From NCBI GenBank assembly GCA_964537265.1, contig CAZHZE010000001.1, positions 91,103-155,102 of the forward strand: DNA of 64,000 nucleotides, in the 5' to 3' direction. The translations under genes and the position numbers were made by a program. This DNA comes from an uncultured Gammaproteobacteria bacterium. Lineage in GTDB: Bacteria > Patescibacteriota > Patescibacteriia > Patescibacteriales > GWC2-42-12. The notes below the pieces were generated by a model, which was not told where the DNA came from, made no database searches, and was given only the letters and a program-made list of their open reading frames with translations. Shown here piece by piece: positions 1,921 to 64,000 of the stretch (the stretch's first letter is position 1; each line of letters starts with the position of its first letter).

Positions 1921-3054
1921 TTATCTCGTCTGCTTACTAATATTAATTAAAATACCAATGGAAGACAAAGCGACTAGCATAGCTGATCCGCCGTAGCTTA
2001 TCATAGGCAAAGGCACGCCAGTCATTGGCATAATATTAACCATACCGCCGATATTTATAAAGGCTTGCATAACAATCCAGCTTACTATGCCAATAGCCAA
2101 AATTTTTCCAAAATCATCCGGGGCTTTTTTGGCTATAAGAAAACCTCGATAAAATAAAGCTAAATATAATAAAACTAAAATAACTGAAAAAACAAATCCT
2201 ATTTCTTCGCTGATAATTGGAAAAATTGCGTCGTTTTGCGCTTGTGGAAGATATAAAAATTTCTGTCTTGATTCGCCTAAACCTCGACCGAAAAATCCAC
2301 CTGATCCGATCGCGATCAAAGATTGATTAATCTGATAACAATATTTATCCGGAGAATATGAAGGATCCATCATGCATTTAAAGCGATTAGCCTGATACGG
2401 ATAAATATTTACCATTATAATTATAGCCGTTAATCCTAATAATATTAAAACTATTAAATGCTTAACGCTGCCTCCACCAATAAAATAAACGATTAGTGAT
2501 GATAAGGCAATAATAGTTAGAGTGCCCATATCCGGCTGCAATATCATAAGTAAAGCGATTATCCCAAGAATAACTAAAAATGGTCCAAGGCCAGTAGCAA
2601 TTTCCCCTAATTTCTTTTTTCTCCCCTCGAGCCAAGCGGCTAAATAAATTAAAAAGGTAATTTTAACAAATTCCGACGGTTGCAAAGAGTAACCAAAAAC
2701 ATTTATCCAACTTTTAGAAGTGCCCCAAGTTCCGGCTAAACCTGGAATAAAAACTAAAATTAATAAAATAATAGAAAAAATAAGCATCCATAAAGCATAT
2801 TTTTTCCAAACCTGATAATCAATTCGCGAAAAAATCCAAGCTGCTATAAGACCTAAAATTAAGCCAAAAAGCTGATGTTTAAAAAAATAATAACTGTCTT
2901 GATGGGCGCTATAAGAAATAATTGATGAGGCGCTAGAAAGCATAATCATTCCAAAAATAATAATCGCCCCAACTATAAAAATAAGCGGCTTGTCTGATTC
3001 ATGATCGCCGCGATAGGATAATATTTTATTAAAAGAATTTATTAATGACTTCAT
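1921..3054 (-). CDS. ftsW: SEDS-family peptidoglycan glycosyltransferase FtsW/RodA
   Basis: 377 aa polytopic protein with SEDS-like motifs (NDAIFPIISEEIGF, PLPMISYGGS). Lies between mraY and murG. Confidence 0.85.
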   Translation of the reverse strand: MKSLINSFNKILSYRGDHESDKPLIFIVGAIIIFGMIMLSSASSIISYSAHQDSYYFFKHQLFGLILGLIAAWIFSRIDYQVWKKYALWMLIFSIILLILVFIPGLAGTWGTSKSWINVFGYSLQPSEFVKITFLIYLAAWLEGRKKKLGEIATGLGPFLVILGIIALLMILQPDMGTLTIIALSSLIVYFIGGGSVKHLIVLILLGLTAIIIMVNIYPYQANRFKCMMDPSYSPDKYCYQINQSLIAIGSGGFFGRGLGESRQKFLYLPQAQNDAIFPIISEEIGFVFSVILVLLYLALFYRGFLIAKKAPDDFGKILAIGIVSWIVMQAFINIGGMVNIMPMTGVPLPMISYGGSAMLVALSSIGILINISKQTR

Positions 3055-25357: not shown

Positions 25358-25431
25358 TCGGGGATCGTCCAATGGTAAGACAGCGGCCTTTGGAGCCGTT
25401 AATCATGGTTCGAATCCATGTCCCCGAGCCA
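25358..25431 (+). tRNA. tRNA-Gln (anticodon UUG), CCA encoded
   Basis: Manual cloverleaf. Acceptor TCGGGGA/TCCCCGA, anticodon loop CTTTGGA, T arm CATGG-TTCGAAT-CCATG, then GCCA. Confidence 0.9.
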
Positions 25432-30508: not shown

Positions 30509-30554
30509 ATAAATATAATTATATCATAAAATACGTAAAAATTAAAAATTTTAA

Positions 30555-30625
30555 GCGGGTATAGTATAATGGCAGTACGCGACCTTCCCAAGGTTGAGGC
30601 ACGGGTTCAATTCCCGTTACCCGCT
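30555..30625 (+). tRNA. tRNA-Gly (anticodon CCC), no encoded CCA
   Basis: Acceptor GCGGGTA/TACCCGC, anticodon loop TTCCCAA, T arm ACGGG-TTCAATT-CCCGT. Confidence 0.9.
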
Positions 30626-30629
30626 CCCT

Positions 30630-30968: not shown

Positions 30969-31041
30969 GCCGAGATAGCTCAACTGGTAGAGCAGCGGTA
31001 TCGTAAACCGCAGGTTGGAGGTTCAATTCCTCTTCTCGGCT
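30969..31041 (+). tRNA. tRNA-Thr (anticodon CGU), no encoded CCA
   Basis: Acceptor GCCGAGA/TCTCGGC, anticodon loop ATCGTAA, T arm GGAGG-TTCAATT-CCTCT. Confidence 0.9.
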
Positions 31042-31101
31042 CAAAAAATAATTTTGTAAACTATAAGTTCGCCCCGTTTTGATATTTCAGAAATAAGCAC
31101 C

Positions 31102-38319: not shown

Positions 38320-38713
38320 TAATATCAAGGTAAGCTATAAGCCGGATTCTGTATAAATGATTATCTATCTAGCCTTAGCGTTGCCGCTAAGGTCAAGCGA
38401 GCTACTTTTCATTATTCCGCGGATACGGAATAGTTTGCTCTTGCTCCAGGCAGGGTTTACCATCTAGCGCTGTTGCCAACGCAGAATGCTCATAGCCTAA
38501 GTTATTTGGATATCCTAATATAACTTAAACACTGGGCAACTTTTCACCTTTCCCTCATGTTATACGAGGTAGTATTGTCTCTGTGGCACTTTCCCTAAGA
38601 TTACTCTTGGTGGACGTTATCCACTGCCGCTTTCCAGCATAAAAAATGCTTTTGGAGTCCGGACTTTCCTCCCACTTAAATTAGTGGGCAATCATCCGCT
38701 TACCTTGATATTA
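38320..38713 (-). ncRNA. rnpB: RNase P RNA, bacterial type A
   Basis: The minus strand contains GGGAGGAAAGTCCGGACTCC (P4 5'), GGGAAAGTGCCACAGAGA, AAGGTGAAA, GATGGTAAACCCTGCCTGGAGCAAGAGCAAA, ACAGAATCCGGCTTATAGC (P4 3'). P1 pairs 38322-38335 with 38698-38711. Confidence 0.92.
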
Positions 38714-39749: not shown

Positions 39750-39843
39750 AATATTTTTCCTCCTTTTGAAAAATATAACTTTGTGAACAATAGAGGACTC
39801 GAACCTCTGACCTTTCCGATGTGAACGGAACGCTCTAACTTCA

Positions 39844-39856
39844 CCCCGTCACCTTT
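39844..39856. repeat. 13-bp inverted-repeat arm flanking the inner tRNA-Val (3' side on the minus strand)
   Basis: AAAGGTGACGGGG (minus-strand reading) is perfectly complementary to CCCCGTCACCTTT at 39945-39933. Confidence 0.9.
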
Positions 39857-39858
39857 TG

Positions 39859-39932
39859 TGGGCACAAAAGGACTCGAACCTTTGACCTCTCCGATGTGAA
39901 CGGAGCACTCTAACCAACTGAGCTATGTGCCC
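39859..39932 (-). tRNA. tRNA-Val (anticodon CAC), inner complete gene, no encoded CCA
   Basis: GGGCACA-TA-GCTC-AGTTGGTTA-GAGT-G-CTCCG-TTCACAT-CGGAG-AGGTC-AAAGG-TTCGAGT-CCTTT-TGTGCCC-A. Confidence 0.92.
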
Positions 39933-60240: not shown

Positions 60241-60241
60241 G

Positions 60242-60313
60242 TCGGGGTACCCGGAATTGAACCGGGATTACACGCACCCGAAGCGTGCGTAATAGCCTTT
60301 ATACCATACCCCG
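60242..60313 (-). tRNA. tRNA-Pro (anticodon CGG), no encoded CCA
   Basis: CGGGGTA/TACCCCG acceptor (C1-G72), anticodon loop TTCGGGT, T arm CCCGG-TTCAATT-CCGGG, 4-nt variable loop. Confidence 0.88.
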
Positions 60314-60316
60314 CTG

Positions 60317-60387
60317 TGGACCTAGCCAGAATCGGACTGGCGTCTCGGCAATGCGAATGCCGCGTCATACCACTAGACCATAGGCCC
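60317..60387 (-). tRNA. tRNA-Ala (anticodon CGC), no encoded CCA, unusual T-loop
   Basis: GGGCCTA/TAGGTCC acceptor with G3.U70, anticodon loop TTCGCAT. T arm GCCAG-TCCGATT-CTGGC, with C at position 55. Confidence 0.85.
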
Positions 60388-61609: not shown

Positions 61610-63082
61610 TTATTTAACGTAAAACTCTTTTTTTATTTCTTCATCATCTTCCATTTTTTTCTCTTCAATTTTTTCTTTAGCTTGATCGCGCAATTCTTTT
61701 AAATCCATCTCATTTAATTCTAAACTTCGTTTTTCCAAATATTCTTTATTATTTAATTTTTGATCTTCGATTACTTCTGATAATAAAACATCTAAAATAG
61801 CGCCGATTTTTGGGCCTGGTTCTATTTTTAATATTTTCATTAAACCATCGCCATTTATTTTTAACATTTTAACCGAGACTGCATCGAACCTAACTTTTTT
61901 CATCATGTACTCTAAATGGCGCAATTTATATGGTTTGGCTTTGGGCACGCCCGAACCTAAACGATCGGCAATGCGCAAATCAATTAAATCAGCTAAATTT
62001 TCTTCACCAACTTTTCGAATTAAGCGACGTACTGAACTTTCCGTTACTTCGCCTACATTATAATAAAACATATGATTTTTAACTAAAGTCGTAACTTTTT
62101 CAATATCCGCGTTAGAGAATTTTAACCTCTGCATTATTTTATTAGTAACTTTTGCTCCCACTATATCATGATTATAAAAAGTGGCGTCACCTTTTATAAT
62201 TCTTTTGGTCTGCGGCTTAGCTATATCATGAAGTAACGAAGCCAGCCTAACTTGCCACTTTTTATTTGGCGTATGCTTTAATGATAAAACACTATGTTTA
62301 AAAACCGTATAAATATGATGTCTGTTTTGATCCATACCTACGCCGCGCTCTAATTCTGGAAGAATATACTGAAGCAATTTATATTCATGAAGCCTCATTA
62401 TTCCTTCATAAGCCTGCTCGGATTCCAAAATTTTTATAATTTCATCACGTAATCTTTCGCCGGAAATAAATTTAATACCACCAGCCATTTTAATAATTGC
62501 CCGTTCGGTTTTAGGCTCGATAGAAAATTTAAGCTGACAGGCGAATCTAACGGCACGCATCATTCGTAAAGCGTCTTCTTTAAATCTATCTTCCGGTTCT
62601 CCGACGGCGCGAATAATATGTTTTTGTAAATCTTTTTGCCCGCCAAACAGATCAACTATTTCAAAATCTACATTTTCAACTTTTGACTTTTTACTTTTAA
62701 CTTTTAACTTAATGGCCATGGCGTTAATAGTAAAATCTCTGCGGCTTAAATCTTTTTCTAAACTATCTTCAAAAGTAATTTTATCAGGATGGCGACGGTC
62801 GCTATAACCTTGCTCACTGCGATAAGTAGTTACTTCTACAACATCCTCGGTTTCGCCATTTTTAGATTTAATCGGCACTAAAACCGTGCCAAAAATATTT
62901 TCATATTTACCATCAGAAAATACTTTCAACATATCTTCCGGTCGCGCATTAGTAGTTACATCCCAATCTTTCGGCGTTTTACCCAATAACAAATCACGCA
63001 CGCAACCGCCAACAACAAAAGCTTCGAAACCTGCTTGTTCTAATTTTTCAACAATATTTTTTACGTATTCAGGAATTTTCAT
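61610..63082 (-). CDS. cca: CCA-adding enzyme (tRNA nucleotidyltransferase) with HD domain
   Basis: 490 aa. GGCVRDLLLGKTPKDWDVTT, RDFTINAMA, HDIAKP HD motif. Confidence 0.88.
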   Translation of the reverse strand: MKIPEYVKNIVEKLEQAGFEAFVVGGCVRDLLLGKTPKDWDVTTNARPEDMLKVFSDGKYENIFGTVLVPIKSKNGETEDVVEVTTYRSEQGYSDRRHPDKITFEDSLEKDLSRRDFTINAMAIKLKVKSKKSKVENVDFEIVDLFGGQKDLQKHIIRAVGEPEDRFKEDALRMMRAVRFACQLKFSIEPKTERAIIKMAGGIKFISGERLRDEIIKILESEQAYEGIMRLHEYKLLQYILPELERGVGMDQNRHHIYTVFKHSVLSLKHTPNKKWQVRLASLLHDIAKPQTKRIIKGDATFYNHDIVGAKVTNKIMQRLKFSNADIEKVTTLVKNHMFYYNVGEVTESSVRRLIRKVGEENLADLIDLRIADRLGSGVPKAKPYKLRHLEYMMKKVRFDAVSVKMLKINGDGLMKILKIEPGPKIGAILDVLLSEVIEDQKLNNKEYLEKRSLELNEMDLKELRDQAKEKIEEKKMEDDEEIKKEFYVK

Positions 63083-63122
63083 AACAAAAATAACACTTAA
63101 TTTAGCGTTATATTACAGTTAA

Positions 63123-63151
63123 AATATATAATAAATAATTAGTTATGTCAA
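63123..63151 (-). promoter_or_regulatory. cca promoter (TTGACA-17 nt-TATATT)
   Basis: Minus-strand TTGACA at 63151-63146, 17-nt spacer, TATATT at 63128-63123. Lies between the sRNA terminator and the cca ATG. Confidence 0.45.
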
Positions 63152-63157
63152 AATTAA

Positions 63158-63195
63158 CAAAAAACAAATAACCCCGACAAAACAGGGTTATTTTT
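63158..63195 (-). terminator. rho-independent terminator of the sRNA candidate
   Basis: AATAACCC / GGGTTATT 8-bp stem. On the minus strand it is followed by TGTTTTTT. Confidence 0.65.
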
Positions 63196-63391
63196 GATAA
63201 ATTAACATATATCAATTATTTAAACTTGGCGAAGAGTAGTAGTCATATTTTTAGCTAACTCGTCCCAGGGAATAACATTTTATAATTTTCAAATTTTTAT
63301 TTAAACTATCTGCTAGGGACGGCAGTAGTTAAATCATATATTATTCCCAAGCATTAAGGAGAGCTGCTAAAAATATTTTCTTACTCTCCGG
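63160..63391 (-). ncRNA. candidate stand-alone structured sRNA (about 230 nt, rod-like, 6S-like architecture)
   Basis: Nested helices in + coordinates: 63230-63238/63382-63390 (9 bp, including one pair that is G.U only on the minus strand), 63245-63255/63366-63376 (11 bp perfect), 63259-63265/63358-63363, 63268-63275/63341-63348 (8 bp), apical 63310-63313/63322-63325. Own promoter and terminator. Confidence 0.45.
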
Positions 63392-63395
63392 CCAT

Positions 63396-63424
63396 ATAAT
63401 ATAGCAAAATTTTTAAAAAGTCAA
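63396..63424 (-). promoter_or_regulatory. promoter of the sRNA candidate (TTGACT ... TGCTATATTAT)
   Basis: Minus-strand TTGACT at 63424-63419. TGC + TATATT (63403-63398, 15-nt spacer) or TATTAT (63401-63396, 17-nt spacer). The predicted TSS falls at the base of the rod helix. Confidence 0.45.
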
Positions 63425-63479
63425 GAGTTAAAGCCCGCTACTTTTCAACTATTAGCTCACAATTTATCCACCTTTTCAT

Positions 63480-64000
63480 TTAAAATCTCTTCAACCACTT
63501 TAAAATCGCCCAAGCAATCATGCCGCCGATTACGGCCGTAGCCAGTTGCGGCCAGCTCATCATTTGCGCTATTTTTACGGCTAATTCTTGTTTTATTAAT
63601 AAATTAGATATCCAATTAACGCTTAAATATAAAAAAGCAAATTTTAAAATTGAGGCCGCTAAAATGCCTCTGATATAACCGGTTTCGGAATTTTTTGACC
63701 AATCATAAAACCGATCAATTGTTAAAATATAAATTACATTGCTAATCATAATAAAAGGCACGGCTGGCGCTAAAACCGCCGGCAAAAGCCCTCCGGCTAA
63801 AGCCATTAAGCTCGGTATTAAAGCCACGACTAAAGCGCTTCTTATACCGACTAAAAATAAAATTAAAATTAACAAAGCGTTAATTATCGGGCCGGTGATC
63901 CATTGCAAATGAATAAGAAATGGTAAAAATAAAGCAACGCCAGCTAAAATTATAAATTTAGCTAAGTTTTGGGCATTAACTTTATCTAAAATTTGTTCCT
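63480..64000 (-). CDS. polytopic membrane protein, possibly an ECF-type substrate-binding (S) component; partial, N-terminus off-window
   Basis: The track ORF starts at a TTG (63908), but the frame stays open to the window edge (...EQILDKVNAQNLAKFIILAGVALFLPFLIHLQWITGPIINALL...). At least 5 TMs. Confidence 0.5.
   Translation of the reverse strand, partial: EQILDKVNAQNLAKFIILAGVALFLPFLIHLQWITGPIINALLILILFLVGIRSALVVALIPSLMALAGGLLPAVLAPAVPFIMISNVIYILTIDRFYDWSKNSETGYIRGILAASILKFAFLYLSVNWISNLLIKQELAVKIAQMMSWPQLATAVIGGMIAWAILKWLKRF

Follow-up and report, generated by a model that had tools for sequence, protein, structure and literature searches.

The window analyzed here, a stretch of DNA of 64,000 nucleotides with a G+C content of 32%, harbors a gap between a small membrane-protein gene, which ends at position 63480 and weakly matches the S component of ECF transporters, and cca, which encodes the CCA-adding enzyme (61610 to 63082). 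Both genes lie on the minus strand, the former 5' and the latter 3' of the gap. The first-pass annotation had placed in this gap a minus-strand transcription unit without any credible open reading frame (ORF), and every element of it was recovered in place. The unit opens with a predicted sigma-70-type promoter (63396 to 63424, minus strand), which consists of a -35 TTGACT (63424 to 63419) and TGCTATATTAT (63406 to 63396), in which either TATATT or TATTAT can be read. As TTGACT-17-TATTAT, this promoter scored 10/12 in a consensus scan. At the other end of the unit, a terminator scan detected the proposed intrinsic terminator (63159 to 63193, minus strand), formed by an 11-bp stem (63193 to 63166) followed by GTTTTTT. 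The same-strand promoter of cca itself, TTGACA-17-TATATT (63123 to 63151; 11/12 in the scan), lies outside the RNA gene and bounds it. The predicted transcript would thus extend on the minus strand from about 63392 to about 63159, that is, over about 235 nt; we infer its promoter use, ends and abundance from the sequence.

The stretch that separates the stop codon of the upstream gene from the RNA promoter contains no terminator. Upstream of the -35 element it carries a 36-nt box (AAGGTGGATAAATTGTGAGCTAATAGTTGAAAAGTA, 63439 to 63474, minus strand), which is conserved in 10/10 RNA-bearing loci (see below) and reads as a DnaA-box-like TTATCCAC on the opposite strand. As L006, a locus without the RNA, also has the box, the latter may be no part of the RNA unit. 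We also considered it as a regulon motif and rejected this reading, the box being unique within the window.

Folding, covariation and a covariance model (R1) delimited an imperfect hairpin of 169 nt on the minus strand (63226 to 63394), referred to below as the rod. Its helices had been proposed by eye in the first-pass annotation (a 9-bp basal helix, an 11-bp perfect helix, the helix now called P4 and an apical hairpin), and all of them were found. From the base upwards, the rod consists of the 9-bp basal helix P1 (CGGAGAGTA/TACTCTTCG, 63390-63382/63238-63230), internal loop 1 (AGAAA, 63381-63377/GACTAC, 63244-63239), the perfect 11-bp helix P2 (ATATTTTTAGC/GCTAAAAATAT, 63376-63366/63255-63245), P3 (63364-63357/63265-63258), internal loop 2 (63356-63349/63267-63266), P4 (GGGAATAA/TTATTCCC, 63348-63339/63277-63268) and the 13-bp apical stem P5 (63334-63322/63313-63299), which is closed by the apical loop (63321-63314). 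Between P4 and P5 lies the large A/U-rich internal region that had been noted earlier. An unpaired stretch is indeed present there, but it is not two-sided: it is a one-sided A/U-rich 3' bulge of about 21 nt (AAAAATTTGAAAATTATAAAA, 63278 to 63298) that faces only about 4 nt (63338-63335). The consensus displays the same asymmetry, as do the single-sequence folds that are unbranched (L003 and L132), the large loop having 1 to 6 nt on its 5' strand versus 18 to 22 nt on its 3' strand. Inspected by eye, the internal loops did not fit a K-turn or a loop E.

Directly 3' of the basal helix lies a CCAA tail (63226 to 63229, minus strand), followed by an A/U-rich linker in which a small hairpin can form (ATTGATATATGTTAAT, 63201 to 63216, minus strand). 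The loop of this hairpin holds the AUG of a mini-ORF of 6 codons (MLIYQK, then stop; 63207 to 63187, minus strand), the stop codon of which is located inside the 5' arm of the terminator.

The 251-nt minus-strand RNA folded at -75.4 kcal/mol, compared to a mean of -43.4 for shuffled sequences (z = -7.6), and none of 200 shuffles folded as well. The plus strand folded at only -53.7 kcal/mol (z = -4.6).

Homologues were searched for using the cca protein as an anchor and were detected with nhmmer and covariance models. The anchor search covered 80 loci from one-genome-per-species contigs, whose lineages, for those loci in which one was stated, were Candidatus Falkowbacteria, Parcubacteria or other Patescibacteria. 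The cca protein of the window was unique in the protein collection, its nearest relative being 86% identical, and only L003 among the 80 cca-anchored loci carried the RNA. Further loci were obtained from contigs of near relatives and from a single metagenome scan for an invariant pattern of 22 bases. This pattern represents the linker and terminator, not the rod, and the scan returned only three contigs, two of them in the same context with an upstream transporter-like gene and the third ending inside the RNA just before cca. Overall, the RNA was found in ten loci representing nine distinct rods (the window, L003, L129, L130, L138, L137, L134, L132, L140 and L142), all of which belong to Candidatus Falkowbacteria (Patescibacteria); one more contig (L131 = L136) ends inside the RNA. 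In 10/10 loci the RNA immediately precedes cca and has the same orientation. It follows the transporter-like gene in all of them except L132, in which a glycosyltransferase gene is inserted upstream and the RNA still adjoins cca. Covariance model R1 scored 174 bits in the window and 130 to 182 bits in the homologues.

The RNA is missing at the cca site in many close relatives, among them L001, L002, L004 to L007, L133, L135, L139, L143 and the P0020 contig, the latter being judged from the size of its gap (134 nt). In L001, L005, L006, L007, L133, L139 and L143, a short hairpin that resembles a terminator by eye comes after the stop codon, the conserved cca promoter being next, and in L135 a longer G+C-rich hairpin occupies the site instead. 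Carriers and non-carriers are interleaved on a neighbor-joining tree of cca. Moreover, L008 retains a recognizable 3' remnant (z = 13.8), with most of the rod gone. The distribution indicates that the RNA would predate the core clade and would have been lost repeatedly; alternatively, it may have moved elsewhere in the RNA-less genomes. The patchy presence and the L008 remnant imply that the RNA is either dispensable or located elsewhere in those genomes. It looks like an accessory rather than a universal RNA of a narrow Falkowbacteria clade. The flanks of the RNA loci revealed no partner protein gene that co-varies with RNA presence.

We then considered more distant relatives. Model R2, applied to 560 kb of other loci, gave its best two matches in L020 (22.9 bits, E = 0.005) and L018 (19.7 bits, E = 0.04), both of them exactly upstream of cca and on the correct strand. 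Folding of both loci gave a long rod, then a small hairpin and then a terminator. When the filters of the covariance search were turned off, any long hairpin, such as the one in L013, scored 15 to 21 bits on both strands, and weak matches alone therefore cannot prove homology. L020 and L018 are probably distant members, their homology being unproven.

The rod measures 166 to 174 nt across the homologues, with five helices in all of them and an apical loop of 5 to 12 nt. The first-pass annotation had proposed conservation or covariation of the helices in relatives as a check, and we analyzed this in two alignments. In a structure-independent MAFFT alignment of eight full-length sequences, comprising 65 consensus pairs in the rod, linker hairpin and terminator, 97.9% of the cells were paired and double changes were found in 11 of the 65 pairs. 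The mean for shuffles was 4.2, none of 500 shuffles reached 11, and slid controls gave 0 to 3. Similarly, in a model-based alignment of the nine distinct rods (52 pairs), 95.9% of the cells were paired and 14 of the 52 pairs displayed compensatory double changes (shuffle mean, 5.2; 0/500 shuffles reaching 14; slid controls, 1 to 4). In the latter alignment each helix contained at least two covarying pairs, and in L142 the apical stem is largely rewritten yet still paired. The ten sequences are closely related (mean identity of about 80%), and the counts therefore include inherited changes; the slid controls nevertheless argue that the covariation signal is real despite this kinship.

Minus-strand expression of the unit had been supported earlier by a single G.U pair that would be A.C on the plus strand. 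This argument now holds on a larger scale: the aligned homologues contain 41 G.U cells versus 3 A.C cells, and the minus-strand fold is the more stable one. Such an excess argues for selection on the RNA of the minus strand and not on a DNA cruciform. Taken together, the substitution patterns among homologues show selection on the fold of the minus-strand RNA, and not on protein or DNA. With its promoter, rod and terminator present in ten loci and its helices covarying, the locus is, as far as sequence comparison goes, the stand-alone, noncoding structured small RNA (sRNA) that had been proposed, and we regard a real structured RNA gene as highly probable.

The homologues also differ in which parts are kept. 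In the promoter, CTTGACT and TA..AT are invariant in the ten homologues and the 17-nt spacer is variable; the distance from the -10 element to the basal helix is 5 to 8 nt in every homologue. A terminator is found at this position in all homologues, with a different stem sequence in L138 and L142, and L130 and L138 combine the same rod with different terminators. Within the rod, the sequence UAAGAAA at internal loop 1 is invariant, and the 3' bulge displays a pairwise identity of about 81%, compared to 52 to 53% in both internal loop 2 and the apical loop. The resemblance of L020 is located in the mid-rod block YUCCUA..CGUUUGAGAAU/AUUCUC..GGGGAUGAG. The CCA directly 3' of the basal helix, which has 9 to 10 bp, is invariant in 10/10 homologues, and the base that follows it is A, U or G. 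In L132, an extra C-G pair keeps the CCA adjacent to the helix. GCCA is also present in L008 and L018, and CCA is lacking in L020. In the linker, both the hairpin and the mini-ORF, in frame as MLI[YF][KQR]K followed by a stop, are present in 9/10 homologues, L142 lacking both. The changes UUA/CUA, AUU/AUC and UAU/UAC in the mini-ORF are synonymous. The significance of the linker hairpin and of the mini-ORF is unproven.

No other coding potential emerged. No ORF of at least 12 codons was common to the homologues on either strand, and the short ORFs inside the rod vary in frame and length between them. An SD-like GGAGAG in the rod, followed by AUA, AUG or UUG, was tried as a start signal and rejected, as the resulting peptides have 3 to 29 codons in different frames. 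Indeed, the A/G change at this SD-like site is part of a covarying stem pair, which argues against an ORF. A Shine-Dalgarno sequence precedes only 2 of 48 ORFs in this genome; its lack before the mini-ORF is thus uninformative.

A repeated palindromic element of the MITE or REP type had been named in the first-pass annotation as an outcome that would undermine the sRNA. Neither blastn-short nor the covariance model found a second copy of the rod arms in the 64-kb window, and in about 0.6 Mb of related DNA the covariance model detected one RNA copy per locus; we thus rejected such an element. Beyond repeats of this kind, the rod could be a non-functional or selfish insertion, for example, the relic of a mobile palindromic element that folds well by chance. 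The patchy occurrence among close relatives and the decayed copy in L008 fit such an origin, and other palindromic insertions are present in these intergenic regions. However, the RNA is single copy in the window and related loci, and the contigs returned by the metagenome scan have it in the same context where there is enough sequence. Searches of phage and plasmid sequences with blastn gave nothing beyond a 29-nt chance match. In viral contigs, a pattern derived from the apical hairpin hit only coding repeats of tail fibers, and one derived from the 3' arm hit five contigs with short, partial and weak matches to the RNA profile (best E = 0.006). In addition, the compensatory changes and the asymmetry of G.U over A.C imply purifying selection on the RNA fold, and promoter and terminator have been maintained. 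We therefore consider an insertion of this kind very improbable.

We next asked whether the RNA belongs to a known family. At the gathering score, Rfam identified the RNase P RNA and tRNAs in the window and nothing in the gap. With lax filters and E <= 10, searches of the RNA region of the window, L132 and L134 returned only chance matches driven by the terminator. The RNA matches no Rfam family and, by its sequence and predicted structure, is a new, clade-restricted family of structured sRNA. This bears out the option of a novel sRNA that the first-pass annotation had kept beside its main suggestion, a 6S-like RNA.

The 6S suggestion itself did not stand. In this reading, the RNA would be a functional 6S RNA or an analogue of it, mimicking an open promoter and sequestering the sigma-70 RNA polymerase holoenzyme, with the A/U-rich bulge as the non-template strand. 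In 6S RNA, a two-sided central bubble of about 15 nt per strand is present, whose 5' strand templates the product RNA and whose 3' side carries the -10-like non-template strand, and the terminal stem is long enough to mimic upstream promoter DNA to the -35 region. Like 6S RNA (ssrS; RF00013), the RNA described here is stand-alone, of similar length (about 170 to 190 nt) and abundant-looking, and it folds into a single extended, irregular hairpin, whose 3' strand includes a large A/U-rich segment left unpaired, at the place of the non-template strand of 6S RNA. The rod, with its own strong promoter, falls within the 6S size range of about 150 to 200 nt. Moreover, our literature search yielded no account of a 6S RNA from the candidate phyla radiation, so that the slot may be open. 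Unlike 6S RNA, however, it has a one-sided loop, with only 1 to 6 nt on the 5' (template) side, and an apical stem of 13 bp, which is too short for a -35 mimic; the two-sided bubble and the long terminal stem are thus both missing. In the window, L132 and L134, there was no match to RF00013 or to the other 6S-type models at E <= 10. The distribution also differs, being clade-restricted and patchy: sister species lack the gene at the syntenic site and L008 has a decayed copy, and absence from close relatives is unexpected for a housekeeping 6S RNA. Of note for the comparison of folds, the minimum free energy fold of Escherichia coli 6S RNA had a branched central region (positions 42 to 143) with an unpaired run of about 9 nt on the 5' side, and no single unbranched rod. 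A 6S function thus appears quite unlikely.

The fixed position of the RNA raises the question of whether it acts in cis. It could be a leader or attenuator of cca, in which translation of the mini-ORF modulates read-through of the terminator in a pyrBI-like manner, or a structured 3' untranslated region (UTR) of the mRNA of the ECF-transporter-like gene. Indeed, cca is always the next gene downstream of the RNA and has the same orientation, even in L132, and this is also true of the weak matches in L018 and L020; for a 3' UTR, no terminator intervenes between the upstream stop codon and the RNA promoter. The mini-ORF, in frame in 9/10 homologues with synonymous changes, has an A/U-rich context that resembles a normal start site in a genome devoid of Shine-Dalgarno sequences. 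In pyrBI-type attenuators, a translating ribosome masks the terminator. Similarly, a short ORF (6 codons) ends here in the 5' arm of a terminator upstream of a same-strand gene. In contrast to such attenuators, the downstream gene has its own promoter, located after the terminator and conserved across Falkowbacteria including the RNA-less species. This is in agreement with the earlier claim that the RNA is not simply the cca leader, and on the same ground, a near-consensus cca promoter intervening between terminator and cca, we rejected a cca riboswitch or 5' leader. Furthermore, L142 has the rod and terminator without the mini-ORF or linker hairpin, no conserved antiterminator alternative was seen, and a leader peptide leaves unexplained a covarying rod of 170 nt with a conserved promoter, a rod that has no counterpart in attenuator leaders. 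A cis-acting element is, in our judgment, improbable.

An action in trans is what we consider probable, with less assurance than the existence of the gene itself. One way to act in trans would be base pairing, the rod serving as a scaffold from which a seed, located either in the 3' bulge or in the A/U-rich linker, would pair with the A/U-rich translation start regions of mRNAs devoid of Shine-Dalgarno sequences. As this genome barely uses Shine-Dalgarno sequences (2/48 ORFs), its start regions would be A/U-rich and complementary in composition. The unpaired segment of 18 to 22 nt, whose 81% identity is above that of the other loops, the conservation of the linker in 9/10 homologues and a promoter and terminator layout typical of sRNAs all fit such a role. 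Nevertheless, a 50-bp rod is rare among base-pairing sRNAs, A/U-rich matches are expected by chance, no target was found and the locus shows no link to any known RNA chaperone. A pairing between the terminator arm and the cca start region of the window was rejected, as homologues that carry the other type of cca leader have not conserved it. Base pairing is thus rather unlikely.

We tentatively favor binding of a protein, which we hold to be possible without claiming it as probable. Rigid rods of 50 bp whose internal loops and one-sided bulge are conserved are found more typically in RNAs that bind proteins than in base-pairing sRNAs, which favors a protein platform or decoy. In the mechanism that we propose, the conserved sigma-70-type promoter would start transcription at the foot of the five-helix rod, and the terminator would end the transcript just upstream of the cca promoter. 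The RNA would then act in trans, its rigid rod serving as a platform to which a protein binds or as a decoy for such a protein, and the likely recognition sites would be the UAAGAAA loop, the mid-rod block CGUUUGAGAAU/GGGGAUGAG and the A/U-rich 3' bulge of 18 to 22 nt. Whether our core claim as a whole holds, namely, that the sRNA is real and structured, acts in trans and represents a new family, we judge to be evenly balanced.

The rod end with its invariant CCA resembles the acceptor end of a tRNA: a helix is followed by a single-stranded CCA in 10/10 homologues. This suggests maturation or recognition by RNase P, by 3' trimming or by the neighboring CCA-adding enzyme. Five of the six tRNA genes in the window lack an encoded CCA and thus depend on the CCA-adding enzyme, and the RNase P RNA gene is located in the same window. 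The rod may be a giant mimic of an acceptor stem, matured by RNase P and 3' trimming, and may serve as a partner, decoy or sensor of the CCA-adding enzyme or another tRNA-3'-end enzyme. This specific analogy is a long shot, and an involvement of tRNA-end enzymes in any form is only slightly less doubtful. Other causes might underlie the conservation of the CCA, which is lacking in L020, the probable distant relative. A rod this long could equally be a substrate of RNase III or a stabilizer of a 3' UTR. If the acceptor-mimic reading were true, it would represent a new kind of RNA-enzyme regulatory pair.

Very little is known of regulatory RNAs in the candidate phyla radiation, whose members are ultra-small, uncultured and reduced in genome. 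The present locus adds a covariation-supported RNA gene from this group that lies outside the Rfam families, and it offers handles in its conserved unpaired motifs, its acceptor-like CCA end and its fixed site beside cca. Its narrow and patchy distribution limits its general importance. Should the ribosome, RNA polymerase or a tRNA-end enzyme prove to be a binding partner of the RNA, the latter would illustrate the regulation of core processes in minimal cells.

Two other groups of known RNAs share features with this gene. MicL/DapZ-type sRNAs are embedded after a coding gene, from which they are transcribed by an internal promoter up to a shared terminator. Similarly, the RNA described here follows the stop codon of an upstream gene with no intervening terminator, has its own promoter and ends at the sole terminator of the unit. 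However, MicL/DapZ-type sRNAs are short and Hfq-dependent with a single-stranded seed, whereas this RNA is dominated by a 50-bp rod. The precursor of 4.5S/SRP RNA and the C4 antisense RNA of phages P1 and P7 are hairpins with a 3' (N)CCA that are processed by RNase P like tRNA precursors. Although the RNA described here has no SRP domain IV motif, no GNRA tetraloop and no sequence similarity to them, it shares with both a long basal helix followed by a single-stranded CCA, as well as a short 5' leader between the predicted start and the helix.

Five of the six tRNA genes in the window (25358-25431, 30554-30628, 30969-31042, 39858-39932, 60241-60313 and 60316-60387) do not encode the 3' CCA, the sole exception being tRNA-Gln. 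The CCA-adding enzyme, whose gene (cca) adjoins the predicted small RNA, should therefore be essential. A further stretch directly adjoining tRNA-Val (39784-39844, minus strand) gave a borderline match to the tRNA model, its 29.6 bits lying barely above the cut-off of 29, and ARAGORN called no tRNA at this site. The class A RNase P RNA is encoded at 38322-38707 on the minus strand (209 bits).

We found a conserved hairpin in the 5' leader of cca (63083-63122, minus strand), approximately 10 to 20 nt upstream of the AUG, both in the window and in the cca loci of related genomes (L001-L143). As judged by eye, the stem is retained among variants such as UUAAGGCG..UGCCUUAA, AUAACGCU..AGUGUUAU and AGCGCU..GGCGCU. 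This hairpin may act as an mRNA stabiliser or as an operator. The sequence TTAGCTATAAT, immediately 3' of the -10 in the cca leader region, is conserved as well.

The window has 48 ORFs that are 150 codons or longer, and a Shine-Dalgarno-like motif precedes only two of them; the start regions are merely A/U-rich. Translation initiation in the source organism thus seems to proceed without Shine-Dalgarno pairing. The linker that follows the rod of the RNA carries a mini-ORF of six codons (AUG UUA AUU UAU CAA AAA UAA; 63187-63207, minus strand), which starts in the loop of the linker hairpin and stops within the 5' arm of the terminator. Its frame is retained in 9 of the 10 homologues, with some of the changes being synonymous.

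Several related loci harbor palindromic insertions resembling MITEs, by which the apparent cca start is displaced. Those of L132 (~2840-3000) and L006 (~2835-2905) have their termini in common (ACCCCGTTAAATA ... TATTTAACGGGGT) but differ in their sites, the former lying in the cca leader and the latter between the stop codon of the upstream transporter gene and a conserved box, whereas the insertion in L129 (~2915-3000) is of another type (ACCCCAGTTAG ... CTGGGT). In L129, the stretch from the transporter stop to the box also carries a perfect hairpin of about 70 nt (GAGCCTGTCTAATAAGTT...AACTTATTAGACAGGCTC; 2447-2530), and L130 and L138 have only the half-site GAGCCTATCTAA, directly 3' of their own transporter stop. 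In L013, two long, near-perfect palindromic hairpins (1191-1341 and 1376-1495) scored with the covariance model of the rod on both strands, their sequence being unrelated to the rod; they may represent repeat elements.

The box itself spans 36 nt 5' of the RNA promoter (63439-63474, minus strand) and is kept in every locus bearing the RNA as well as in L006, which lacks it. A 27-nt A/T-rich insertion separates it from the -35 in L132 and L134. On the plus strand, the box contains TTATCCAC(C/T), a sequence similar to a DnaA box, with a perfect TTATTCACA in L140.
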